A stretch of DNA of 63,728 nucleotides, the filler included, from Stramenopiles sp. TOSAG23-2 (lineage: Eukaryota), in the NCBI GenBank assembly GCA_900128395.1. It is 33 parts of 33 records of this genome, joined end to end, with 100 filler letters (N's around TTAATTAATTAA, not from the genome) between each part and the next. Parts side by side here need not be neighbours in the genome. Positions count along the whole stretch, not along the records: positions 46,527 to 48,351 come from LT652304.1; 32 more parts are not named here. The stretch is one strand, 5' to 3'. The translations under genes were made by a program, and so were the position numbers. The notes under the pieces were generated by a model. The model had not been told where the DNA came from. It made no database searches and saw nothing but the letters and a program-made list of their open reading frames with translations. This document shows positions 1-48,802 of this stretch, piece after piece (position 1 is the stretch's first letter; every line of letters begins with the position of its first letter).

Positions 1-584
1 ATTTTAATAATAGTGAGATAAGATAAAGTAGAGCCAGAGAGTATGCTGTGGTATGCTGGTATGCTGGTATGCTGGGTATGCCTAATGTTGCTAATTTGAG
101 CAAGAAATCAACTCTCACAGACAAAAAGAACTTATATCTCGATATTTTTCAATGCTATGTCCATATTAAATTTATCAAATAGGAAGGCAAGTTCTAGAAA
201 TGTGTGGTGTGGATGTGTGGTTTAAAATTTTCATCTAATGCTATATACCTGGTATGTCGTGATTTGGATCTTTCGAGGTTCATTTATTATACTTGTTAGT
301 ATAATATTTCAGCATGAAAGTTTTCTGCAAGTGGGAAAAAGAAGTAATCTCGATCTTTTTTTTGCACTTTTGTACAAAAAATTATAATCAGCTTTGCTCA
401 ATTAGCTAATGCTATTTATATGCTAGCTAGCTACTGAATGGATCATATTATAAGTATATTAATCACATACAAACGTAAGAATGCAAACACACGAAGATAG
501 AAACATATTTATATATATATATCGGTCAAATAATAAAACAATAAGAAAAACGTTTACGAAATCAAACAATTCTTTATACAAACA

Positions 585-1608
585 ATGAAAACATCACAAT
601 TATTAGTAATTGCAACTATGTTGCTTGCAGCAACATTTGCTAGTGCACAAAAAGGAAAACCAGTTCTTCAAAACCTCGATGTTGGTAAATCCCCACCTTT
701 GTCAGCAGCTATGAGATCTGTATTAATCATGGTTGTTGTATTCTTCATTGTTGAAGTTGGAAGTTATGCATTCAAAGTACAAGGCGAAATCACAAAAATG
801 AAAAATGCTGTTATGAAATGGATGTCAAAGTCGATGCCGTTATGAAAGTTACTGATGGATTTTTGAAAATACGTGGTAGTTATTTTTCAGGCCAATATTC
901 CAAGAAAACGCCAGAGGCATATGTTTTTGCAAAAGAAGGAGATGTACGCATACCATACATCACAGCTCAAACGTCTGATATCAAGACATTGGCAAAATTA
1001 GCAAATGTAACTGTTCTTAAAAATATTGATGACGTACCTGAAGGCTGCTGTGCGCAACCAATTGATGGTGATTTGCAAGTATATGTACAATTAAAGGGTG
1101 TTATTGATTTTGGAAAAGAAGTGACAAAACTAACGAAGGAGTTGGGCAAATTTCAAGGTATGGTGAAAAAAATCGAATCACAAAAATGAAAAATGCTGTT
1201 ATGAAATCGGATGGTGAAGATAAAGGTATGCTTGATGGTGTTGTAAAAATGCCAGCTGAAATCCAAAAACAATTGGATAATATTCGTGACTTTTTACAAA
1301 CCACTGATATGGTAACTAAACAAATCCCAATGCTTTCCATTTTGATCGTATTTGCACGTTTACGCGCAAAGGTTGATCTTGAAGGTACTGATCCTGCAGC
1401 ATACGCACAAAATGCTTTCATTACAATCGGTGTACTGGTTGCAATCCAAGCAGGTGCGCTTTTCCTGGATACATGTGACAACGCAACGTTAAAAATGTTT
1501 AACATTGTTGTTCAAGGATTATGCAAATTATCCATCATGGTATGCGTTGTTATCGTTATTGAATCAATCTTTTCATTGAAAAAAACCGTACCAAAAGTTG
1601 CATTTTAA
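585..1608 (+). CDS. Signal-peptide multi-pass membrane protein of unknown function, split by a foreign insert (~820-1175)
   Basis: ORFs 585..845 and 1186..1608 share KMKNAVMK, encoded by a ~32-bp direct repeat at ~788-819 and ~1176-1207. Removing the insert gives one protein with a signal peptide and several hydrophobic helices. Confidence 0.7.
818..1186 (+). CDS. VARS: Fragment of valyl-tRNA synthetase C-terminal region (chimeric insert)
   Basis: VPEGCCAQPIDGDLQVYVQLKGVIDFGKEVTKLTKELGKFQGMVKKIE matches the pattern of the eukaryotic ValRS anticodon-domain/coiled-coil arm junction. Confidence 0.7.
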
Positions 1609-1855
1609 AGGAATTTGATGTCTACGTCAAGGCAAAGATCATTGATCTATGCAGAAAAGATATTTTAGTATTGACGAGTAAATGGCTAATCCTATTTAAA
1701 AATGTATGTGTACGAAACATTTAAGAGAGAGAGAGAGAGAGATTTTTGAAGAAAAAAGGACTATTATATTAAGTTTAAAGTGACTTTATGATATTGCCAT
1801 TATGAGACTTATTTTTTTAAAATTGGAAAAAAACAAGAATTTAGAGAAAAAGGTG

Positions 1856-1955
1856 NNNNNNNNNNNNNNNNNNNNNNNNNNNNNNNNNNNNNNNNNNNNT
1901 TAATTAATTAANNNNNNNNNNNNNNNNNNNNNNNNNNNNNNNNNNNNNNNNNNNN
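1856..1955. other. Artificial contig spacer N44-TTAATTAATTAA-N44 (first of 32, recurring every ~1.93 kb)
   Basis: Identical linker with stops in all six frames, flanked by N runs. Contig lengths decrease steadily along the window. Confidence 0.99.
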
Positions 1956-2388
1956 CCGTTGATTTAAATATATTTGCAATATGATTGATGGTTGGGTTGT
2001 TGTTGTGTTTTTTCTTTGTTCTTTCTCTCGTCACTTTGTCGTCGTTTGTTCCATTCAACGTTGCTGTTAATGGTTTAATTAATGTATTTAATTGAATTGT
2101 TTCTTTCTTTGTTTGTTTTAATAATGTATTAAATAAAATATTTGAATCAAATTTGTTATTTCTTGTTGTTGTATTGTTGGTTGTATTATAATATAACGTG
2201 GATGTTTGTTGTTGTTGTTGTTGTTGTTGTGATTGTTTCATATTATCATTATTATTATTGTTTCTAGGTAATATGGATAATATCGGTGTTGTTGTTTTCC
2301 ATTTACCACCACGATGTTGTTCACGTTGAAAACGTTTTGTCCATGCATTTGTTGTATTTAATAATACATTATGTTGTTGATTTATCAT
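1956..2388 (-). CDS. 5' part of a low-complexity (N/Q/T-rich) hypothetical protein, truncated by contig end
   Basis: Open frame from ATG 2388 (MINQQHNVLL...) to the spacer. Confidence 0.45.
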
Positions 2389-2796
2389 TTTATGTTTTGT
2401 TTCTTTTTTTGGAAGAAAATGAATAATGTTGTCAAAAATTAAGAAAATGATGTTGTTGATGTGAAAATTCAAAAACAAGAAAAAAAAACCACCGTCAGAT
2501 TCAAATAATTTTTTTTCTACCGACCGCAATCACAAATAAATAAATACACACAGATATCTATCTCTCTATATATATAACGAGAGTATCACGCAAATAAAGT
2601 TATCTACATCCATCTATACATCTACATCAATAGGATAGATAGGCTTCAAAGTCCCTTTGGGAGAGCGAAAAAAGGCTGTAAAATTTAACTGCCATTTCCT
2701 ATATATCACCTATCAAAGCGAATACTTGTTTGTACTTGAAGGGGTCAAAATTCGTATTGTCATTGAGTTCGAAGTTTGTCAAATTATCAATATTTA

Positions 2797-3341
2797 TACT
2801 TAAATAGGATATTAGAATACGAACACTTTCTTTTTCGGAAAAGTTGTTCAGTGTTATTTATATGCTAAATGCTAATTACAAAACCTTAAATCACAACACT
2901 GGTTGACCGATTTATACTTAAATAGGATATTAGAATACGAACACTTTCTCTTTCGGAAAAGTTGTTCAGTGTTATTTATATGCTAAATGCTAAATTACAA
3001 CATATAAATAGCATTGTATCTTATTTCTATGCTAATCTGTACATTATTCTATAGGATATATGATTGTACTTGAATGGTATATTAGAATACTAAATCGATT
3101 TCGAAAAATCTGAAAACTCGAGTACTTACCTATCATATTCTCATATATTATACTTGAATGGTATATTAGAATACGATATCAAATCTGCAAAATGCAAAAA
3201 TGCAAAAATCTAAAATCTCGCCGAGTACTTACCTATCATATTCTCATATATTATACTTGAAGTAGATATTAGAATACGATATCAACGATTTCCAGCAATA
3301 ATAGGACACAGAAGTTGTACTTGAAGGGGGTATTAGAATAC
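2797..3341 (+). repeat. Array of six copies of the bipartite 24-bp motif TACTTRAA-N5-TATTAGAATAC
   Basis: Copies start at 2797, 2915, 3067, 3151, 3254 and 3318. A half site lies at ~2733. Confidence 0.9.
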
Positions 3342-3773
3342 CAATGACGTCATCCACTTCGTTATTTTTTGTGATCTTTTTTTTCTTTTTCTTTTTTTTT
3401 TTAGGAAATATGATAGGTATATTATCTCCTTTAGTATACGTTTAAGTATGAATATCCACGCATTTGAACCCCAACTATCACTGACTATATATATATATCA
3501 TAAATATATGTGGATATACACATAAATGTCAATAACAGAATAGAATAAATATAATATTATAATAACCAAGTTATATATACACATATAATATTAATAATAA
3601 TAGTAATAAAAAACAAGAAAAGAAAACAAAGGCAACTGGAAAAAAAAAATTTTGAACATTTTACATTTTCCCAAATTTTAACTTTTTTTCTTTTTTAATC
3701 AATTTCCCTATAAATTTACCTTTTAGATAATAATAATATATATATATATATAATATATACAGTAAAACAAACA

Positions 3774-3804
<31 letters not shown>

Positions 3805-3907
3805 TTANNNNNNNNNNNNNNNNNNNNNNNNNNNNNNNNNNNNNNNNNNNNTTAATTAATTAANNNNNNNNNNNNNNNNNNNNNNNNNNNNNNNNNNNNN
3901 NNNNNNN

Positions 3908-4119
3908 AATTCATGTATTTTTGTCTTTGATTTTACATCATATATAGTTGTTTTATTTGCATTATCCCCAGTTGCCAATAATCTACCATCATTTGAAAAT
4001 GATACACTTAATACACTAGCATCGTGTATAAATTCATGTATTCCAAAAGTTTCATTAGAAGGAATCTCTTTTATTTCTTTTGTTTCGTCCATCGGTTGTA
4101 TTTGCCTTGTTTTCAACAT
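3908..4119 (-). CDS. WD40-repeat protein, 5' fragment
   Basis: HDASVLSVSFSNDGRLLATGDNANKTTIYD is a typical WD40 blade. A second repeat (KIHE) begins at the contig end. Confidence 0.8.
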
Positions 4120-4633
4120 CGTAACCTCGCTTCCTTGATGATATGATATATTATATATGTGTCTCTTTCCATTATGCCTCATCAAACATACACACATGTA
4201 TATATATTTTATCAAATGCAATAATAATGTGTTATTCGTTACACACAAAACAAGAAGAAGCAAATTTCACCCATCACAACAAAATAACATACAAATAGCA
4301 TTAAAGAACGGTACATGTTTTATTTTTAGGTGAAAAATCAACAATGGGTTACAGAAAAAATTAAAATCGTTGTCAAACAAAAATTTCGAGGGGTACAAAA
4401 TTTTCAAAAACGTTTTTAAGTTCTAATATAAATACGTAGTTCCTACACACACGCACACACACACTTCTTTTCGTAATATTAAAATTTTCGATTTTCCTCC
4501 TACACTACACAATTTTTGATATTAATGCACTTTTAAATACAGCTGCGCCACAAACGAACAATTTCATTTTAAACAATTTCTGCCTTGGTGCTATATATTA
4601 TAATTTTATCACTTTCACTCTCTCTCTCTCTCT

Positions 4634-5722
4634 CTAATCACCATCATCTTTCTTACTTTTATCTTTTTTTCTTCTCGGTCTACGTCGTGGATATTTTTCT
4701 ACTTTTGGTGTATGTTGGCCTTGTCCATCTACTTGATATGGTTTCGACGTATCCCTCCATCGAACACGATTTACAGGACCACTTGTTTTAATACGATACA
4801 TTGCCCCACCAGTTGGTTTAATTTGTTGAATAATAACTGCATGATCAAGTGGGTGTTCACCAAATTGATGTTTGTACCATTTATACATTCCCATTTGTCC
4901 ATATATTCTTGCTTGTAATAAAACGGCACGTTCCGCACGTTTCATTATCTTTTCCGGTAATGTATTTCTGTATGCAATTGCAAATCCATCTGCCTCTTTC
5001 GTATCTACAGCCCGCCCTTCAATGATACAATCCAATATATAATCAGGTTTTGGATCTAGTTTTTGCAAATCAATGCGTAATTCCTCATGGGCTAATCGAT
5101 TATATTCCACTGAATTTATTTTTAATGCATCATCTGCTGGATTATGAGCAGAAAGACCAAAGATGGTATATTCAAAAAAAAAATTAGGCATTTTAACATG
5201 ACCTGGACCTTCTGGGGAAATATCATGTTCATTACCTAAATTTAATTGAAATGCAACTTCTTCATCATCGTAATCATCTAATGGTAACCACATTGTGGTT
5301 ACTGCATGATTCCAATTATGTCCAATGGCACGATGTGTAGATGGATCTGGCCAATCCCAATATCTAACACGTTGTTTTTCATTTAATCCACTTTCTGGAT
5401 TTAATACTTTTTTGGCACGAAAATATTGTGTAGTAAAATATGCCAATGACAATCCAGTGATTAATATGAAGACAATCGTTTCACAGCAATATTTTTCAAA
5501 ACATGTGCGCTTACGCATTATTCTACGTTTTTTCTTACCAGACGAAGTAACTCTTAAATGTTTTGGTGATGGAGGAATATTTGCCATATTATCCGTTGTT
5601 CTTTTACGTTGTCTTGTTTTTGAAGTTGTTGCTTCGTTTATATATTTATCGTAACGTATGTCGTCCTCATCTTCATCTGTTGATGTCCAATCTGTACTAT
5701 ATTCATCTCTATCAACATACAT
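4634..5722 (-). CDS. Hypothetical type II single-pass membrane protein (~362 aa)
   Basis: Long ORF with an acidic/basic N-terminus, one TM helix (IVFILITGLSLAYF) and an unrecognised globular region. Confidence 0.75.
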   Translation of the reverse strand: MYVDRDEYSTDWTSTDEDEDDIRYDKYINEATTSKTRQRKRTTDNMANIPPSPKHLRVTSSGKKKRRIMRKRTCFEKYCCETIVFILITGLSLAYFTTQYFRAKKVLNPESGLNEKQRVRYWDWPDPSTHRAIGHNWNHAVTTMWLPLDDYDDEEVAFQLNLGNEHDISPEGPGHVKMPNFFFEYTIFGLSAHNPADDALKINSVEYNRLAHEELRIDLQKLDPKPDYILDCIIEGRAVDTKEADGFAIAYRNTLPEKIMKRAERAVLLQARIYGQMGMYKWYKHQFGEHPLDHAVIIQQIKPTGGAMYRIKTSGPVNRVRWRDTSKPYQVDGQGQHTPKVEKYPRRRPRRKKDKSKKDDGD

Positions 5723-6289
5723 CAATGATGATGATGGGCGGCAATTTTTTTTGTGGAGTNNNNNNNNNNNNNNNNNNNNNNNNNNNNNNNNNNNNNNNNN
5801 NNNTTAATTAATTAANNNNNNNNNNNNNNNNNNNNNNNNNNNNNNNNNNNNNNNNNNNNGAATACAATAACTGAGACAAATCTATCTCACTAAACTGAAA
5901 GATGGACAATGAATCGTAACATCACGATAGAGTTCATTGAAATCCACAGAGTGTGCCTATATATAATTTAGTTTACGCATTTAATTTATTTTTTAATTTA
6001 CTCATATGATAATTCCTACTCTTCAAAAGAATACAATAACTGAGAGACAATATATATATAAATCTATGTGTGTCATATGTCGTGTACTTTACACTACAAT
6101 GGCCTATTGCATGATGATGTATTACTATCATACAATTCCCACTGCCACTATTGAGTTATACATAATTCAAAATTTTTGATAATTACTTGATATGTGTTAA
6201 TTTCATGAAAAATGTGTGAGGAGAAAAAATAAAAAACATATCTAGAGAGACACATTTTCACACGAACATGCTATTAAAAAACAAATATC

Positions 6290-11972: not shown

Positions 11973-13304
11973 ATGAGGCGATTAAATGTACAAACCACAT
12001 CATCGAATGAATGTAAAAAAATAACTATTAGCAAATTATTTTATGGCATCATTATATTTTGTACCATATACCTGACCTTTTCAAAATTACTATTATTTTC
12101 AACAAATAATAATTTAAATAATATGAAAACCATTTCATACCAAGAATATAAACCGGGCGTCAAAGTAACACGATTATCCGAACGTTTACAAAATTTTCCT
12201 TTAAGAAAAAATGCTACTGGCAAGACATCTTTTAAATATATGGATATTACAAATCCAAATGTAATAGAACTTTTTGTTGAAGAACTCGCTATTGTATATT
12301 CCTATGCTAATGGTTCTGCAAGTGATTATTTAAAAATACGTTTAGAAGCATGTAAAAATATTCATTCTCTAAGGTTTTGTAATAATAAATGGAGATTAGA
12401 AAGAAGTAGAGATAGTGGAGAAATTTTATATTCGATCAGATCAATTGCAAAAAATATGCCTTGGTTTCGAGGTCATATTTATATTGTAACAGCAACTGGT
12501 AAAGGACCAGACTATTTAGATTATTCAAATCCGCGTTTACATGTTATACATCAAAAAGATATTATGCCAAATGAAAATATCCCATCATTTATAAATGATT
12601 GCCAAGAGTATTATTTAACAAATATCAAAGGTTTAAATGATCGATTTATAATATTTGATGATGATACATTTTTAGGTAGATACGCTCCGCCATCGGTCTT
12701 TTTAACGCAATTTGGTGGCAATAATTTATATGTTGAAGATTCATTAGTTGATGATTGTCCATGTACTAGTTCTCAAATATGGTCATGCAGTGTTTGTAAT
12801 ACTTTGCGAACGTTACGACGAGTATATGGATCTGGATCTGTTCCATTTCATTACATGAAACATGCACCACGTGTATATTCCAGGCAAGTGATAGAATATA
12901 TACATACTGTAAAAGAACTAGATTATGCTATAAGAAGAGGTTGCAAGAATCCATTTCGTAGTGGATCTTTAATACAATTTGATTTTTTACATCATCATGT
13001 ATTGATGCAAACACACCTACATGATTTTGGGGTATCAACTGGTTGGAACGCTGACATGCATTTGATCCAATTAGCAGGTAATGATATTAATTCTTGGAAA
13101 AAGTTAGCAAGTGAATGGTCTGTGAAACCACCCTTATTTTATGCTATCAATGATGAAGGTTGGAAAGATTGTAGATATGGAGATGTTTTGTTAGATTTAA
13201 TGAATAAATTATATCCTGAACCATCTGAATTTGAAAAGAAAGATGCAACGAAATTAATTCATTTTAGTCATTGTAAATATCCTGCGAAAAAAAAACTTCG
13301 TTGA
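11973..13304 (+). CDS. Stealth-family hexose-1-phosphate transferase (GNPTAB/CpsY-like), type II membrane protein
   Basis: N-terminal TM. CR1 IVYSYANGS, CR2 EILYSIRSIAKNMPWFRGHIYIVT...IPSF...IKGLNDRFIIFDDDTFLGR, CR3 HAP...PFRS, CR4 FYAINDE. Confidence 0.9.
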   Translation: MRRLNVQTTSSNECKKITISKLFYGIIIFCTIYLTFSKLLLFSTNNNLNNMKTISYQEYKPGVKVTRLSERLQNFPLRKNATGKTSFKYMDITNPNVIELFVEELAIVYSYANGSASDYLKIRLEACKNIHSLRFCNNKWRLERSRDSGEILYSIRSIAKNMPWFRGHIYIVTATGKGPDYLDYSNPRLHVIHQKDIMPNENIPSFINDCQEYYLTNIKGLNDRFIIFDDDTFLGRYAPPSVFLTQFGGNNLYVEDSLVDDCPCTSSQIWSCSVCNTLRTLRRVYGSGSVPFHYMKHAPRVYSRQVIEYIHTVKELDYAIRRGCKNPFRSGSLIQFDFLHHHVLMQTHLHDFGVSTGWNADMHLIQLAGNDINSWKKLASEWSVKPPLFYAINDEGWKDCRYGDVLLDLMNKLYPEPSEFEKKDATKLIHFSHCKYPAKKKLR

Positions 13305-36886: not shown

Positions 36887-38394
36887 GATTTCTTTTTCTT
36901 TTTTTTCTCTGATTTTGCCTTCTTTTTCTTCGGTGCATCTTCACTACCATCATCACTACCACCATCCATTTCTTCTGCTTTACGCTTCTCTTTCTTTTCT
37001 TTTTTTGATTTTTTTTTCTTTTTCTTTTTTTCAACTTCTTCATCACTATCAGAGGATGAAGATAAATCATCACGTTTACGCTTAGCAAGTACTGCATCAC
37101 TACTTGCATTGTAACTGGAACTACTACCATTGCTTTTTTTATCATACGCTTTATAATTCGTTTGTGTTTTACCATTACCAGAGGATGCACCAGAACCACG
37201 TGACTCCAATTGTCTCATACGTTCTTCCACCTTTGCTCTTCCTTCCAATCCAATCGTTGCTTCTTCTGTATCCCCAAGCGCATCTACACGTATTGCCAAT
37301 GCTGTTTTTGCAGCCAATACACGACTTATTTTACCTTTGTTTTTCGTAGCAGTTTGCCCGATCAAGGATGCATGGTAAATTAAACCATATTTTGGCGTAT
37401 CATGTTTTGTTTTCAATGCACGAAACAATGCTTTTTCTGCACCTAAAATTTGTACGGTACTTGCAGGTTGTTTTGCTAAATTCAACAAACTACCAGCATG
37501 TGCTAATAAACGTGCACCGACTAATTCACCGACCATTACCGTTAGATTAGGCGCAATCGCATTCATTCTACTTTTTAAATAATCAAACAATTGTACACGA
37601 TATTCCATCATACTCTGTACTTGCTCTGCTAATGCTTTAATGTTTAAAACATCCATATCCCCAATTTCCGTTCCCATACTAACTTCAGCAACTTCTTTCA
37701 TTTCTTTTTCAATATCTTCAGATAATATATCACTAAAATCTTCCCTAGATGCTTTATCACGCGTACCCATTTTTAAAATACATTGTGCGTATTGCAAATT
37801 GTCCGTCACAATTTTTCCCATTTCTGGAAAATGCCATCCATACCATTCACGTACACGCATCGCATATATATTAATTTCTTTATCCAACTCATCTAATAAA
37901 TTAATAGCTTGTACAATCATAGTATCCACTTTGTCGGGTGAAAATTTCAACTTGTAACGGGATAAACCATGGGCTAAACCTAATGAATATGCTTTATTGT
38001 CATCCGATGTGATTTCCGTAACCAAGGCTTCAAATTGGGAACGTATACCACGTATTAACTCTGCTGATTTTTCATTATTAATACAATCAATACTTAATTT
38101 TTCTTTCACGATATTACCTAATTTACTATCAGCAACACCTAATACATCACCTTTTGCAGAATGTTTTAATAATTTCTTTAAATTTTTATCCAATTTACCA
38201 TCTACGATGGCAACTGCAGCTTGCATGGCTTCCGTGGTGTTTTCGAATTTTTTAAATTGATGCAATTTCACTAAACCAGCTGCACGTTCTGGTGTTTTAA
38301 ATTCTTTATAAATATTATCCACTTTTTCTAATTTACCTTCATCTAATACTTTAAATAATGCATATCCAGAGGATGATTCAAATAATACTAACAT
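36887..38394 (-). CDS. NOP58: Nucleolar protein 58 (box C/D snoRNP), Lys-rich tail truncated
   Basis: MLVLFESSSGYALFKV, LGLAHGLSRYKLKFSPDKVDTMIVQAI, REWYGWHFPE, ASTVQILGAEKALFRALKTKHDTPKYGLIYHAS. Confidence 0.97.
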
Positions 38395-38816: not shown

Positions 38817-40499
38817 CCAGTAAATAATGGCGATAAGACTACCGATGAAATAAGTGAAGCACCATTGTCAATAGAAGAAAAAGATATACCAAGATATGAA
38901 GATGAAGAAGAAAATCTAACAAAACGAATAGACACCTCCTTTTTAGATGCAGTTGCAAATATAAGAACTAGTAAAAGTTTAGATGCACCGAATGATATGA
39001 AGTTGAAACTATATGGATTATTTAAGCAAGCAAATATTGGACCAAATTCTACGACAAGACCAGGATTTTTCGATCCAGTCGGTGGAGCTAAATGGGATGC
39101 TTGGATGGCATGTAAAGCACTTTCTCCAAAAGAAGCAAAGTTGCAATACATACAAGTTGTTTCAGAATTAGATACATCTTGGAATAATGGTAGTATTGTA
39201 GCTGATTTACAAGCATTTGAAGAGAAAAGCAAAAATCCTCAAGATGATGTTGGAGAATCATCAAAACAAATTGCATCAGCAACTACTGAGGAGGATAATG
39301 ATCAAAATCAGAAGAAGGAAAAGGGTGAGAATATGTCATTATGGAACGAACCTTTATGCCCAGTTAAATATAAAGACACCATCGAGGCAAAATTTAAGAC
39401 ATTCTTGGAAAGGGTAAAGGGGGACAGAGACAATGTGAATAAGTATTGGTCATTTAACTTTGAACAAAATGGCGTATGTTGTTTTGTACCCCATAATAGC
39501 GATTATCCAGGCGCAAAAGGCATTGGAATCTTAAATTATCCTACACGCGCAGTGTTTGAGATTATTAAAAGATGTGGTGATCCAGATGATACATTGGCAT
39601 ATCGTAAAGACCCAGATATGAAAAAAATTGACGTATTGGAACGTCTGAATGAACAAACTAGTGTACAATATTTGGAGTACAAAGCCGTTTGGCCAGTATC
39701 TGGGCGAGACTTTACAAACATAATCCATTGGCGTAGATTGAGAAATGGTTGTTTTGTATTTGCTGGTTTTACCTTTGAATATGAAAAACGTCCACCGATA
39801 AGTGGTTTAGTACGCGCGGAGACGATAATTGGTGGTTGGCATTTAGAACCATTAGAAAACGGGATGAAAACGAAGTTGACTTATATTGTTGAATTGGATT
39901 TCAAAGGTTCCATACCTTCGTTTGTCGTTAGTCAAGTTACTAAAAAGCAACCAATGCAAATTGATATTATTCGCACATTTTTAGAAGAGGAAGAAAACAA
40001 TTGCGGTGGTCGAGACCGTTTTTTAAAAAAATACGAAGATTTAGATAATATTGTAAATCTTGGAAATGTTGTACAAAATAATGATGATAATGATAATAAC
40101 AGAGATGATGATGACAACCAGATTGATAATAATGTAAAGCCAATGTCAACAAGAGCGACATTAACTGTGACTGATGAAAAATCTCCTGGTTCAGTGGCTC
40201 GTGGTGCAAGGAACGATACAACTCCAACGAAAGTTCCATCACCAAAGAGACGTACTTCTATTCGTAATTCTCCTAAACGACCAATAGGTCGGAACAGCTG
40301 GAGTGAAGATAAAAGACATAAGGTTTGTGAGGAATGTTCCGTAACCTTTTCTTTCACCGTTAGACGTCATCATTGTCGTTATTGTGGTCGTCTATTATGT
40401 GATAAATGTTCAAAATATCTTATAAATGATAAAAGGGCTTGCTTGACTTGTCTTAATAATGATGCAATAGAAGATATCGACGGAAGTGAATTGTATTGA
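38817..40499 (+). CDS. ACBP-START-FYVE multidomain lipid-binding protein, probably 5' truncated
   Basis: ACBP: KLKLYGLFKQANIG..RPGFFDPVGGAKWDAW. START: KAVWPVSGRDF..GLVRAE..DFKGSIP. FYVE: WSED..CEEC..RRHHCRYCGRLLCDKCS..RACLTC. Confidence 0.92.
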   Translation, partial: PVNNGDKTTDEISEAPLSIEEKDIPRYEDEEENLTKRIDTSFLDAVANIRTSKSLDAPNDMKLKLYGLFKQANIGPNSTTRPGFFDPVGGAKWDAWMACKALSPKEAKLQYIQVVSELDTSWNNGSIVADLQAFEEKSKNPQDDVGESSKQIASATTEEDNDQNQKKEKGENMSLWNEPLCPVKYKDTIEAKFKTFLERVKGDRDNVNKYWSFNFEQNGVCCFVPHNSDYPGAKGIGILNYPTRAVFEIIKRCGDPDDTLAYRKDPDMKKIDVLERLNEQTSVQYLEYKAVWPVSGRDFTNIIHWRRLRNGCFVFAGFTFEYEKRPPISGLVRAETIIGGWHLEPLENGMKTKLTYIVELDFKGSIPSFVVSQVTKKQPMQIDIIRTFLEEEENNCGGRDRFLKKYEDLDNIVNLGNVVQNNDDNDNNRDDDDNQIDNNVKPMSTRATLTVTDEKSPGSVARGARNDTTPTKVPSPKRRTSIRNSPKRPIGRNSWSEDKRHKVCEECSVTFSFTVRRHHCRYCGRLLCDKCSKYLINDKRACLTCLNNDAIEDIDGSELY

Positions 40500-44804: not shown

Positions 44805-46426
44805 TTACAACTTTGAATTAGTAATTTTATGCACATTTGCAATAAAATCTTTTGCACCATCCCATGTTCCATGTCCATTTAATCTCCAATGTTGCAATGT
44901 TACTGGTCCATACCATAAATTAAATAAATATGGGTTACCAGATACATCAGCATTAGCAGGTGGATTTGTTTTCCATTCCTTTGGTAGTTCTGGTAAGAAT
45001 GGTTTACAACCAATCTCTTCAGCTAATTCATCGGTATAACGTATATAATCAATAAAACGTGTATACCATGGCTGCATACGTTTTAATCTTGCTTCTCTAC
45101 TTTTACAATATAATTCCATTTCTTCATGTGATGGCATAGGAATATTTCCAGTCAAAACGCTTAAACAATATCTTCCTTGCATCTCCCCAACACCAGCTTC
45201 ATTTGCATTTGTATTAATCATACCACAAAAACATAATGTTGGATATTCTGGATGCATTGTTAATTTATGAAGACGTAACCATTCTTTACCATTTACAGTG
45301 CGTTCCACTGAATTTAAAACTTTTCTTTCTAAAAATGGAAAGATCAATTTATAACCAGTACATGAAATTAACAAATCACATTTATGTTTCGCACCATTTG
45401 TTAATATAACATGGTTTTCACTTAATTCATTAATACCATAACCCATTTGTATACGACCATTTTCTAAATGTTCACAATGTCTTATCCAATTTTTAACATT
45501 AGCCGTATATGCTTGACGATGATCTTTTGGTGGTGGTGGCATACCACTTTTTAAAAAAACCTCATGAACTTTTCCCACTAACATGCCTTCCCGTTTACTA
45601 CCACCCATTTTCTTATTATTATCTGCATCAAGCACAATTTTACCACTATCCCCATCATCTGATCCTCTTGCCATTAATAATTTCGTTGATTTTCGTTTAC
45701 TTCCACGTAATTGATTAATTGATTCTGGGAAAACTTTTGATTTCTTTGGGCCATAAATATTATATCGTGCTGTGTGTATATATATAAATATATATATGTT
45801 TATATGTGGTTAGAAATGACATATTTACAACTATACATATATATATATATAAATGTATGTGTGTGTGTGTTGTTTGTATAATTATATAGAGGCAGAATAT
45901 ATAATATATAGAGTATGTATACAGTAATCAACTTACTATGAAAAGTAACATCTCCAGGTGGTATACTTTCATTACCACTTCCAACAGCTGTCATAAAACT
46001 TCCATTACGAGCACAATGCAAAATTTCCTTTGCATTACTACGTTCTGCCATATCAAATGCTATATCTAAAGATGAATTTCCCATACCTAATATAACTACA
46101 TTTTTATCATCTCCTTCGCTAGGTGAACGATATGTTTGTGAATGTATGATTTTTCCTTTAAATATATTTGAATTTTTAAATGTTGGCATATTTACATGTG
46201 TGCCATATTGACCAGAACATATGAATACGGCATCAAATGTATATTTTTCTACAATATTATTGTTATTATTATTATGATGTTTGGACGACATGACTTGAAC
46301 ATTCCACATTTCATTTTTTTCATCATCATATTCTGAATGCTCATCATAATAATTTGATAAAGGTTGATGTATAACCTTTTCCACTCGATATCCAAATTTT
46401 ATATATTTTCGTAAATTATAATTATC
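44805..46426 (-). CDS. Flavin-containing monooxygenase (FMO) with C-terminal SKL; intron 45770-45936; 5' truncated
   Basis: FDAVFICSGQY, FKGKIIHSQTYR, VVILGMGNSSLDIA, DLLISCTGY, EMQGRY, DYIRYTDELA..IGCKP. GTAAGT...CAG intron restores the frame (TFHTRY). Confidence 0.92.
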
Positions 46427-46705
46427 NNNNNNNNNNNNNNNNNNNNNNNNNNNNNNNNNNNNNNNNNNNNTTAATTAATTAANNNNNNNNNNNNNNNNNN
46501 NNNNNNNNNNNNNNNNNNNNNNNNNNTTCTAAATTACGAAAACATCTATTTGTACAATTATGATACTATTTTTTTCTTGTTATTATCATCTTCTTCCTTT
46601 ATTCTAATTCTTATTATTTTTTTTAATTATTTGATTTTGAACCATTTATTATTATTACATTAAATATATTTTATTAAATTATAAAACCATTATTATTATA
46701 GCAAT

Positions 46706-48351
46706 ATGTTAGCAAAACATCATCATGGAAAAGGACAAATACGTGTTATGAAAGTATTTCGTCAACCAGATAAACATTATGTAAAGCAATTTCTTGTGGA
46801 AACTAATTTATTTGGACCAGTTGATGAATGTTTCTTAGAAGGAGACAATGGTGGTATTGTTGCAACGGATACACAAAAAAACACTGTTTTCTGCATGTTG
46901 AAGAAGTTAACATTTGAAAGAAACTCCGCGGAAGATTTTGCTATGTTAATTTCGAAACATTTCGTAACTACATACCCGAAATTTATTCATCAATGCAAAG
47001 TTATTGTACATGAAGAGACATGGGAAAGAGTTGATGGCCATATGTCAAAAAATGAAAATCAACGCTTGAATCATCATCATGGATTTATAAAAATTGGCCC
47101 TCATCAAAACTATGCAGAAACATATGCATATCGTGATTTTAAGGATGGGGAAAAAATTAAAATTAAATATTTAAAAGCAGGTGTTCGTTCTTTAACTGTA
47201 TTGAAAACGACGCAATCTGGATTTGCAAACTTTGTACGAGATCAATATACTGCATTGCCAGAATGCGATGAAAGATTATTAGCTACGTCAATTGATTCTA
47301 CATGGGAATATGATCGTGCAACGATTGAATTTGCACAAGATTATGATGCATTAAAATTTCAAATTAAACGTGAAATGCTTGATGGATTTGCTGGACCAGC
47401 AGATACGGGAAAGTTCAGTGCAAGTTTACAAGAAACTGCATATGAAATGGGTCGTAAAGTATGCAAAAAAGTGCCTGGTGTTAGTTCCATCACCTTATTT
47501 TTGCCAAATATACACAATATACCATTTAATTTCAACCCATTTGGTTTAGAAAATAAAGATCATACCGGGGAACCTGATATTTTTTGGGTAACAAAAGAAC
47601 CTTTTGGAATCATACAAGCGACAGTTGTACAACCAAAAGAAAAAAAAGATGTAAAATCATTGCTTGGTAATATGGAGAAACATGTACCATATTACAATGA
47701 ATATATTTCAAAAAATCTTTCAATGCGTTTGTTACAAGAATCAAATGATGTTCCAAATGTACCAAATTTAGTATCGATTGGCAATGGACCACCAATATTT
47801 AATAACAACAATTTAAATGATGGTGAAATTACAAATGCATTATCATTTTTATGTGAAATATATAATGATTCATGGAAGAATTTAGCAAATATTTTAGACC
47901 AACGCGAGAAAGATCGTAAATTTATCGATCAACGTGTTCAAGCGTATGAAAAATTACCTTTGAAAATTCAAGAAAAAAGACCATTATATGAAGAAATAAT
48001 TGGACAACAAGATGCCTCTAATCGAGTTGTTATTGGTAAATTGAAGGATGATTTTTACAAAGCAACACCAAATAGTGACGTGAAAGAATTACCTGAATAT
48101 TTAACTGGTCCACACGTAACAATATTTGGGACTGCCGGGTCAAAGAAAGAAAAAGATGATGCTATGAACGTATATTCTAATAGTATATTAGAAAATGAAC
48201 CGGAGATTATGAAACAATTGCTGAAACGACAAGCTGAAACAGCAACGTCGACTACTCTCATGAAATGGGGAGCTGATTTGGAAGATTCACAAACTCCATC
48301 GAAACGTAATTTTTTAAATTCACAAGAAAATTTAAATGATGGTTTCCAACA
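46706..48351 (+). CDS. UOX: Urate oxidase (aa ~1-310) fused to a malate-synthase-like domain (from aa ~323); 3' truncated by contig end
   Basis: Uricase motifs HGK, IVATDTQKNT, VLKTTQSGF, YTALPE..ERLLAT, SASLQET, LPNIH and EPFGIIQATV. The frame continues without a stop into ALSFLCEIY..ILDQREKDRKFIDQRV..LPEYLTGPHVTIFG..AMN..KWGADLEDSQTP. Confidence 0.85.
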
Positions 48352-48802
48352 NNNNNNNNNNNNNNNNNNNNNNNNNNNNNNNNNNNNNNNNNNNNTTAAT
48401 TAATTAANNNNNNNNNNNNNNNNNNNNNNNNNNNNNNNNNNNNNNNNNNNNTACTGCTGTGTGCGTCTGTGTTAGTGGAGAGTATGTGTTTGTAAAAAAA
48501 ATACTGAGTAAAGAATACAATATTACACAAAGAGCGTTTGTAAAAAAATCTTTTCTAGAGTAATAATTTATTATTATGATACGCGAAACGTGCGTAATAA
48601 TTAAAAATAAAAAAAAAAGTAAAAAATCTTTTTTGTGTACAAACGTCAAATGTAAAATATTTTTGGTGTTTATTACTTTAACACGTCATTTTACACACAC
48701 ACTAAAGCGACAGAGAGGTTTATTTTTCACACTTTTCCATATACTACACACACGCACACCTCCTTTCTCTCTCTCTCTCTCTTATATATCAATATATCTT
48801 AA

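Follow-up and report, generated by a model that had tools for sequence, protein, structure and literature searches.

The window analyzed here, a stretch of 63,728 nucleotides from Stramenopiles sp. TOSAG23-2 (GenBank assembly GCA_900128395.1), contains on its contig at 46527–48351 (LT652304.1, 1825 bases) an open reading frame (ORF) in which a uricase is fused in frame to the beginning of a domain of the malate synthase (MS) family. The first-pass annotation had described this fusion as the entry and exit steps of purine catabolism in one polypeptide. The in-frame fusion stands, but the description proved too small, as the full-length gene joins five modules and covers nearly the whole pathway. 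The explanation that best accounts for the whole, to which a probability of about 0.6 is given, is a five-module urate-breakdown gene of a marine eukaryote.

A single ORF starts with the ATG at 46706 and remains open to the contig end at 48351, giving 548 complete codons. It is uninterrupted within one contig, as had been stated, and the motifs previously quoted from it (HGK, ATDTQKNT, ERLLAT, SLQET, PNIH, FLCEIY, LDQREKDRKFIDQRV, PEYLTGPHVTIFG and KWGADLEDSQTP) are all present in the translation. The features of the contig are as follows.

46527..46705, plus strand: AT-rich 5′ flank, from the contig start to the ATG; the counterpart in the metagenome contig L081 (see below) has a GC of 0.116 with a (TA)n run.
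46706..47629, plus strand: uricase module, a factor-independent urate oxidase, residues 1–308, assigned from TIGR03383, PF01014 and alignment to solved uricases.
47630..47680, plus strand: linker of ∼17 residues (309–325), from the end of the uricase to the point where the bacterial proteins start.
47681..48351, plus strand: N-terminal part of the MS-family module, residues 326–548, cut by the contig end and assigned from relatives and structure.
48101..48112, plus strand: L-T-G-P, residues 466–469, read by eye as matching the barrel-strand-1 residues Ile94-Thr95-Gly96 of E. coli malate synthase A (MSA).
48269..48289, plus strand: the G-A-D-L-E-D-S block, residues 522–528, the counterpart by alignment of ADFEDS in the MSA of E. 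coli and of B. anthracis.
48352..48451, no strand: artificial spacer (N44, TTAATTAATTAA, N44), a contig boundary outside the gene.

The presence of a complete uricase in the first ∼310 amino acids (aa), claimed earlier, is borne out, with residues 2–308 scoring 250.4 bits against the uricase equivalog TIGR03383 (cut-off 168.4). The Pfam family PF01014 (Uricase) matches the ORF in two stretches (E 5e-41), and the module aligns end to end with solved uricases, best with 7f2v (E 1.8e-41). Blocks GK (near the N-terminus), TDTQKNT, R-x-LATS, SLQ and PN-x-H, which we take to carry the catalytic residues, all align with those structures. The closest proteins are free-standing uricases of 303–316 aa that are 57%–61% identical to the module; the nearest named ones come from stramenopiles (Pinguiococcus, 50%; brown algae, 43%–44%), followed by plants. 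Judged by these relatives, the module is of the eukaryotic type. Tripeptides resembling the peroxisomal targeting signal type 1 (PTS1), namely SRL, SKL, AKL and PRL, end 9 of the 14 uricase relatives checked. Two relatives, P0275 and P0276 (51%–53% identical; 452 and 458 aa), also carry a transthyretin-type 5-hydroxyisourate (HIU) hydrolase domain and end in ..YRGS; by domain content they are a uricase/HIU hydrolase fusion in related organisms.

The remainder of the gene was recovered through relatives. A word-based protein search with residues 311–548 gave one protein, P0002, a 422-aa fragment (64% identical) that starts in the uricase tail and extends further into the second domain than the window ORF does. 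P0002 in turn produced 538 matches to longer proteins. Among the 120 matches listed, 119 are 1488–1940 aa long and hold the Pfam families of 2-oxo-4-hydroxy-4-carboxy-5-ureidoimidazoline (OHCU) decarboxylase, malate synthase, allantoicase and beta-lactamase, and P0120 (885 aa) is without the last two. The best match, P0003 (1940 aa), agrees with the window ORF in 542 out of 548 positions (98.9% identity) and is the sole carrier of PF01014 among the 120 listed. Its Pfam layout places Uricase up to residue 303, the MS TIM barrel at 566–782, MS_C at 857–949, OHCU decarboxylase at 1057–1162, the beta-lactamase fold at 1174–1509 and two allantoicase repeats from 1601. The modules of the gene run in the order uricase, MS-family domain, OHCU decarboxylase, beta-lactamase-fold serine hydrolase and allantoicase. 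Scanning of JGI metagenomes yielded one contig, L081 (6344 bases), whose DNA is 98.6% identical to the window contig and whose single ORF at 156–5978 (1940 codons) encodes P0003 exactly. Its GC at third codon positions is even over the modules (0.21–0.28), and its upstream flank, of very low GC as listed above, holds a TA microsatellite. The window ORF probably represents the 5′ 28% of a gene that has 1940 codons and no introns and belongs to an AT-rich marine eukaryote; 1392 codons lie beyond the contig end, and a tblastn comparison of P0003 with the window returned the known 548 residues and no further part of the gene. The full protein ends in -GKKQ and lacks a C-terminal PTS1, for which a check had been suggested.

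For the second domain, the sequence in the window speaks against a malate synthase: its 238 C-terminal residues, when searched by themselves against Pfam, NCBIfam and PDB sequences, matched no malate synthase and produced chance-level matches only (SnoaL_3, Flavodoxin_3, an acetyltransferase). The nature of the domain shows only through relatives and structure. The similarity to malate synthase families proposed at the outset thus does not show in Pfam for the fragment; the full-length P0003 scores 47.7 bits against PF01274 (cut-off 26.4) but, against PF20659 (MS_C), 22.4 bits, just short of the cut-off of 23.1. Segment 311–1030 of P0003 (720 residues) matches E. coli MSA (3cuz) by phmmer with E 1.2e-20. 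The ADLEDS block of the window aligns by phmmer with ADFEDS of the same enzyme, in agreement with the malate synthase-type block noted before. An AlphaFold2 model of the domain, built on 43 aligned sequences (pLDDT 84.7, pTM 0.90), displays the fold of MSA and isoform G (MSG), with N-terminal domain, TIM barrel and C-terminal plug. Foldseek ranks MSA first and MSG next. With VIA-align, model residues 43–685 superpose on residues 9–533 of 3cv2_B with Z 33.4, the RMSD being 2.6 Å over 490 residues, and Z is 27–29 for MSG chains. By the aligned range, window residues ∼353–548 are the counterpart of the N-terminal domain and opening barrel strands of MSA, as had been guessed. The module part at 47681..48351 contains the helical N-terminal domain together with the initial TIM-barrel strands. 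The ESM Atlas returned malate synthase clusters at 0.82–0.86, under its own trust line and a lead only.

Conservation was read from a family alignment of 88 rows, consisting of P0003, 8 database proteins and 79 of 80 bacterial loci (one locus, with an ORF of <1400 aa, was dropped). Residue numbers of MSA follow PMC3112382 and the alignment register, in which the chain index equals the residue number minus one. Equivalents of MSA Arg166, Glu250, Asp278, Met330, Trp365, Pro369 and Asp447 are kept in 88/88 rows; in E. coli MSA numbering, Arg166 and Asp447 are catalytic and Glu250 and Asp278 are Mg ligands. The catalytic Arg and Asp, earlier placed beyond the contig end, are indeed found there in the full-length gene, and so are both Mg ligands. 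The position of the ADLEDS block is occupied by GADDEDS in 87 of the 88 rows. Acetyl-coenzyme A (CoA) contacts of E. coli MSA, according to the portion of PMC3112382 available, are Ile94, Thr95, Gly96, Met102, Met330 and Pro369, the region Ile94-Thr95-Gly96 touching adenine and pantothenate. Within this pocket, a Leu equivalent to Ile94, Gly96, Met330 and Pro369 are present in every row. The Thr95 position varies in the bacterial rows and is Thr in the window protein. At the Met102 position, at least 78 of the 88 rows, every one of them bacterial, have Leu or Met. The strand-1 equivalence (LTGP/ITGP) is a by-eye reading, phmmer having aligned that stretch elsewhere. On the combined evidence of residues and model, the second domain is assigned to the malate synthase family with an active site that is intact by residue conservation. 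With E. coli MSA (AceB, 3cuz/3cv2), it shares the fold over 9–533 and the equivalents of Arg166, Asp447, Glu250 and Asp278; it differs in that GWHDY stands in place of GRWDY, barrel strand 1 is followed by insertions and the N-terminal part is longer. In contrast to the solved malate synthases, it is fused to other enzymes, and it is only 18%–23% identical to them.

The closest relatives of the part that follows the uricase are bacterial. When each prokaryotic species was represented by a single genome, a relative of this four-module core without uricase turned up in 398 bacterial species genomes, the majority of them from Bdellovibrionota. The best 80 loci of the 398 genomes were kept; their titles are mostly Bdellovibrio, Bacteriovorax, Halobacteriovoraceae and Oligoflexus, with a few other labels of metagenome-assembled genomes (MAGs). 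Protein and species-genome searches thus agree with the initial suggestion that the nearest relatives are the divergent malate synthases of Bdellovibrionota. In the bacterial protein of ∼1550 aa, the four modules and their order are the same, and both the GWHDY signature and the active-site residues recur. It is 41%–48% identical to P0002 and 46%–50% identical to P0003 over the MS part. Its databases names are “serine hydrolase” (NCBI), “malate synthase” (UniRef) and “allantoicase/malate synthase/CubicO group peptidase” (JGI). P0003 and L081 follow the Bdellovibrionota pattern in module order, the two allantoicase repeats, and the GWHDY, SxxK and HQG blocks; the window itself holds the first ∼223 residues of the core (326–548). 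The bacterial proteins begin with ..IPYY.., which aligns with ..VPYY.. at residues 327–330 of the window protein, after the ∼17-residue linker.

The bacterial form differs in lacking a uricase module and in having a separate membrane PuuD gene and a separate upstream HIU hydrolase gene. Flanking ORFs were clustered, and one representative per cluster was named by Pfam. The transthyretin-type HIU hydrolase is found in 68/80 loci (directly upstream on the same strand in 55) and the PuuD-type urate oxidase (PF06181) in 63/80, of which 45 have it on the same strand two genes upstream. Subunits of xanthine dehydrogenase, and XdhC, occur in 21–23 of the 80 loci and a deaminase in 8. In one genome (G104), the core is split into two ORFs inside the OHCU decarboxylase part (L085, 4702–6891 and 6972–9194, plus strand) behind the usual PuuD and HIU hydrolase genes; such a split may be genuine or may reflect a frameshift or a sequencing error.

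In the mechanism proposed for the eukaryotic protein, five urate-breakdown modules would act on one chain. The uricase would convert urate to 5-hydroxyisourate, the OHCU decarboxylase would carry out the step to S-allantoin, the serine hydrolase would take the allantoinase step and the allantoicase would split allantoate into ureidoglycolate and urea. The MS-family module would then join glyoxylate, the end product, to acetyl-CoA and so form malate, a role that DAL7, the malate synthase of the allantoin gene cluster, has in yeast; DAL7 sets the precedent for the disposal, by a malate synthase, of glyoxylate that arises when allantoin is broken down (PMC3646786). The four-module core would derive from Bdellovibrionota-type bacteria, as the last gene of an operon of PuuD urate oxidase, HIU hydrolase and core. 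A host-type uricase, peroxisomal in its relatives, would have been fused to the front of the core, in the operon position of urate oxidation.

Two modules of this scheme lack an assigned step. The serine hydrolase looks catalytically alive, as its SxxK (ASLSK), YSG and HQG blocks are conserved in all or nearly all 88 rows. If it were the allantoinase, the chain order of OHCU decarboxylase, hydrolase and allantoicase would correspond to steps 3, 4 and 5 of the pathway. A survey of 301 genomes of the Bdellovibrionota phylum, 39 of which carry the core type by table reading (65–94 bits, frames of ∼700–1650 aa), provides context for this assignment. No recognized allantoinase lies above curated cut-offs in 38 of the 39 core genomes: AllB exceeds its cut-off in one, and PuuE in 0/39. 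That the hydrolase fills an otherwise missing allantoinase step is, on gene content and conserved blocks, about as probable as its opposite. Two observations weigh against it. Sub-cut-off cyclic amidohydrolases (159–286 bits) are present in 27 other core genomes. Furthermore, genome G252 encodes both a canonical allantoinase fused to OHCU decarboxylase (L084, 7383–9236, minus strand) and a retained beta-lactamase-fold/allantoicase fusion (L082, 2303–4621, plus strand), which argues against a simple allantoinase reading. G252 had been considered a case of an allantoinase replacing the beta-lactamase-fold module; this was rejected, both being present. A role of the module as HIU hydrolase was likewise rejected for the bacteria, where the transthyretin-type enzyme is encoded nearby in most loci. 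G252 also has a free-standing GWHDY MS-like gene (L082, 6521–8728, minus strand), flanked by two class-V aminotransferase genes.

The activity of the MS-family module is the second point to be weighed. The strongest competitor of the proposed mechanism keeps the same five-module protein and makes this module a ureidoglycolate lyase (UGL), as in the vertebrate “malate synthase-like” enzyme. (S)-ureidoglycolate made by the allantoicase would be cleaved to glyoxylate and urea, the serine hydrolase would serve as allantoinase, and no step would be left over. A true malate synthase is favored over such a lyase: the former has roughly even chances and the latter, although possible, is appreciably less probable. 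A module with both activities is unlikely, and so, to the same degree, is an activity other than these.

A precedent for the lyase exists. As far as the available sections of PMC10120013 go, the fish “malate synthase-like” protein (DrMSL) is a metal-independent (S)-ureidoglycolate lyase in which Arg276 is replaced by Ile and Trp365 by Met, its acetyl-CoA site is unconserved, its clade is restricted to eukaryotes, and a 2-residue insertion at the site interface is a trait of the UGL group. Like DrMSL, the protein described here belongs to the MS family, has a tie to the breakdown of purines and carries a replacement of Arg276: GRWDY of MSA is GWHD[YF] in 88/88 rows, with Trp in place of the Arg. 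Several further observations count, like this replacement, against a malate synthase. P0003 itself has drifted at two CoA-site positions, the Met102 equivalent being Glu and that of Cys438 being Asn. AllA-type ureidoglycolate lyase is found in 0/39 sampled core genomes, and the lyase step therefore needs a catalyst; with allantoinase and ureidoglycolate cleavage both lacking a recognized enzyme and two modules lacking a step, the balance of holes and modules favors the lyase. In addition, 13 of the 39 core genomes also hold a canonical malate synthase (>250 bits) together with isocitrate lyase, encoded on the same contig within ∼1.5 kb of each other in 12 of the 13 and on different contigs in G266. 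Finally, P0226 (1038 aa) joins a GWHDY-type MS-like domain and two allantoicase repeats directly to each other and has neither the OHCU decarboxylase nor the hydrolase module. Fusions usually join consecutive pathway steps, so this layout, too, speaks for a lyase. It parallels Cryptococcus Dal2,3,3, in which allantoicase is joined to ureidoglycolate hydrolase (PMC3646786, in the part available).

The resemblance to the lyase group is incomplete, however. The Arg276Ile and Trp365Met pair is not matched, since Trp365, which is Met in the fish enzyme, is retained throughout the alignment. Surface residues of the CoA adenine pocket are conserved in the bacterial members, while none is conserved in the lyase group as presented in the accessible part of PMC10120013. 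The published group is eukaryote-only in that same part, and the domain here is of the bacterial type; moreover, it keeps parts of the CoA pocket and, unlike DrMSL, belongs to a protein without PTS1. In the other 26 core genomes, neither a further malate synthase nor a full-length match to isocitrate lyase was found (five of them have weak partial matches of 34–52 bits), and thus no other recognized consumer of glyoxylate, aminotransferases and reductases being outside the search. Glyoxylate carboligase above its cut-off was found in 0/39. Malate synthase isoform G is likewise not known to have Arg at the position of Arg276. Two side observations touch on the same family: the glyoxylate-shunt pair of the 13 genomes (G001, G005, G038 and 10 others) is independent of the purine gene cluster, and P0194 (523 aa) is a free-standing GWHDY-type MS-like protein.

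A more far-reaching alternative, which we regard as rather improbable, is that the one polypeptide takes urate to malate by means of two unrecognized catalysts. The beta-lactamase-fold module would then represent a third class of allantoinase, made up of serine hydrolases, or else an amidase that cleaves ureidoglycolate. The GWHDY module would release glyoxylate from ureidoglycolate and condense it with acetyl-CoA at the same site, so that free glyoxylate would never leave the enzyme. A marine protist would have taken the core from bacteria that prey on bacteria and added its own uricase.

Returning to the preferred five-module gene of a marine eukaryote, its core, the larger part of the protein, appears to come from predatory bacteria. 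A FastTree phylogeny (LG+gamma; 88 rows and 1545 columns; bacterial loci drawn from the 80 closest to a Bdellovibrio query) places the eukaryotic core within the bacterial diversity as sister to a Bacteriovoracaceae MAG locus with an SH-like support of 0.96. The sister locus has a normal bacterial operon. The long branch of the eukaryotic core and the restriction of the sampling to these loci weaken this placement as a guide to the donor. Transfer from bacteria to a protist is the economical reading of these relationships, because the core is found in 398 bacterial species and in one eukaryotic lineage, of which two members were seen. Were the contig instead a bacterial contaminant of the eukaryotic bin, the protein would be wholly bacterial and no transfer would have occurred. 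The core relatives are all bacterial, the gene has no introns and the contigs of the window are not physically linked, as such a contaminant would have it. The uricase argues otherwise, being of eukaryotic type and carried, as PF01014, by P0003 alone among the 120 long relatives listed, whereas the bacteria use PuuD. The flank, with its GC of 0.116 and TA microsatellite, and contigs of 95%–99% identity in a polyA-selected metatranscriptome also oppose it, and a contaminant is therefore considered very improbable.

The fusion stretch, whole or in part, is present in 20 runs that belong to 18 studies. The labeled ones are marine, seawater or aquatic metagenomes or metatranscriptomes, plus one coded organism, and six of the 20 are RNA libraries, two of them polyA-selected. 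The junction between the uricase and the MS-family module is real and no chimera. Two DNA runs, each from a different study, gave Logan contigs that span it (46644–48219 with 3 differences and 46650–48018 with 14 differences), and it also stands in P0003, in L081 and in the 64%-identical orthologue P0002, where the uricase tail is followed by the MS part. Both parts, the uricase and the second one, are represented among the RNA contigs of two runs, of which one is polyA-selected. The contig at 47458–47665 runs from inside the uricase past the end of the uricase domain. Those of the two runs leave 47015–47197, 47686–47868 and the stretch beyond 48173 uncovered, which is no evidence of absence, and none was seen to bridge 47665–47906, a point against the fusion. 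An assembly chimera, or two adjacent genes read through without a fusion protein, could be argued from this gap and from the shortness of the contig (1825 bases) in a fragmented assembly, but the recurrence of the junction in two further DNA runs, P0002, P0003 and the single 1940-codon ORF of L081, the RNA contig reaching 47665 and the even composition over the modules leave it hardly any probability.

Two-enzyme fusions of the urate pathway are textbook cases of pathway wiring, and a chain of five modules is of another order; the fungal AROM protein is a comparable idea. The known uricolytic fusions are Bacillus PucL (OHCU decarboxylase-uricase; PDB entries), Cryptococcus Dal2,3,3 (PMC3646786, consulted in part) and allantoin synthase, an HIU hydrolase-OHCU decarboxylase (PMC13751858, consulted in part). 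Like the window protein, they place enzymes of one pathway on one chain, but they join two activities and it joins five modules. In the available portions of PMC13751858 and PMC3646786, the MS and beta-lactamase-fold families are not mentioned among urate-pathway fusions. The former, a 2026 review of urate-pathway enzymes, treats in that portion only HIU hydrolase/OHCU decarboxylase fusions and does not mention Bdellovibrio. Nor is it mentioned in the accessible part of the PuuD paper (PMC4562309). A full-text literature search, with subscription journals and supplementary files outside its scope, found no paper describing the five-module architecture.

The hydrolase situated between OHCU decarboxylase and allantoicase is a candidate new enzyme of a classical pathway. 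The GWHDY clade is physically tied to allantoicase, and its activity would tell how often the MS fold has been recruited to the ureide pathway. The gene also documents a probable transfer from bacterium to protist followed by fusion with a host gene. As the bacterial form is misnamed in 398 species genomes, one assay series would correct many annotations.

The window as a whole consists of 34 separate contigs of ∼1.8–1.9 kb each, ordered by descending length, with a GC of ∼0.25–0.40 throughout. They are joined only by 33 artificial spacers (N44-TTAATTAATTAA-N44), and genes on either side of a spacer are therefore not linked. Nop56/58 (NOP5NT + Nop) is encoded at 36887–38394 (minus strand) and an ACBP-START-FYVE protein at 38865–40499 (plus strand), both on contigs other than that of the fusion; these proteins mark the assembly as eukaryotic. 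An Rfam scan of the window gave no match. A Stealth CR2 protein is encoded at 11973–13304 (plus strand). On the contig preceding the fusion, two ORFs at 44805–45674 and 45800–46384 (both minus strand) lie head to tail with a short AT-rich gap between them and could be two exons of one gene.

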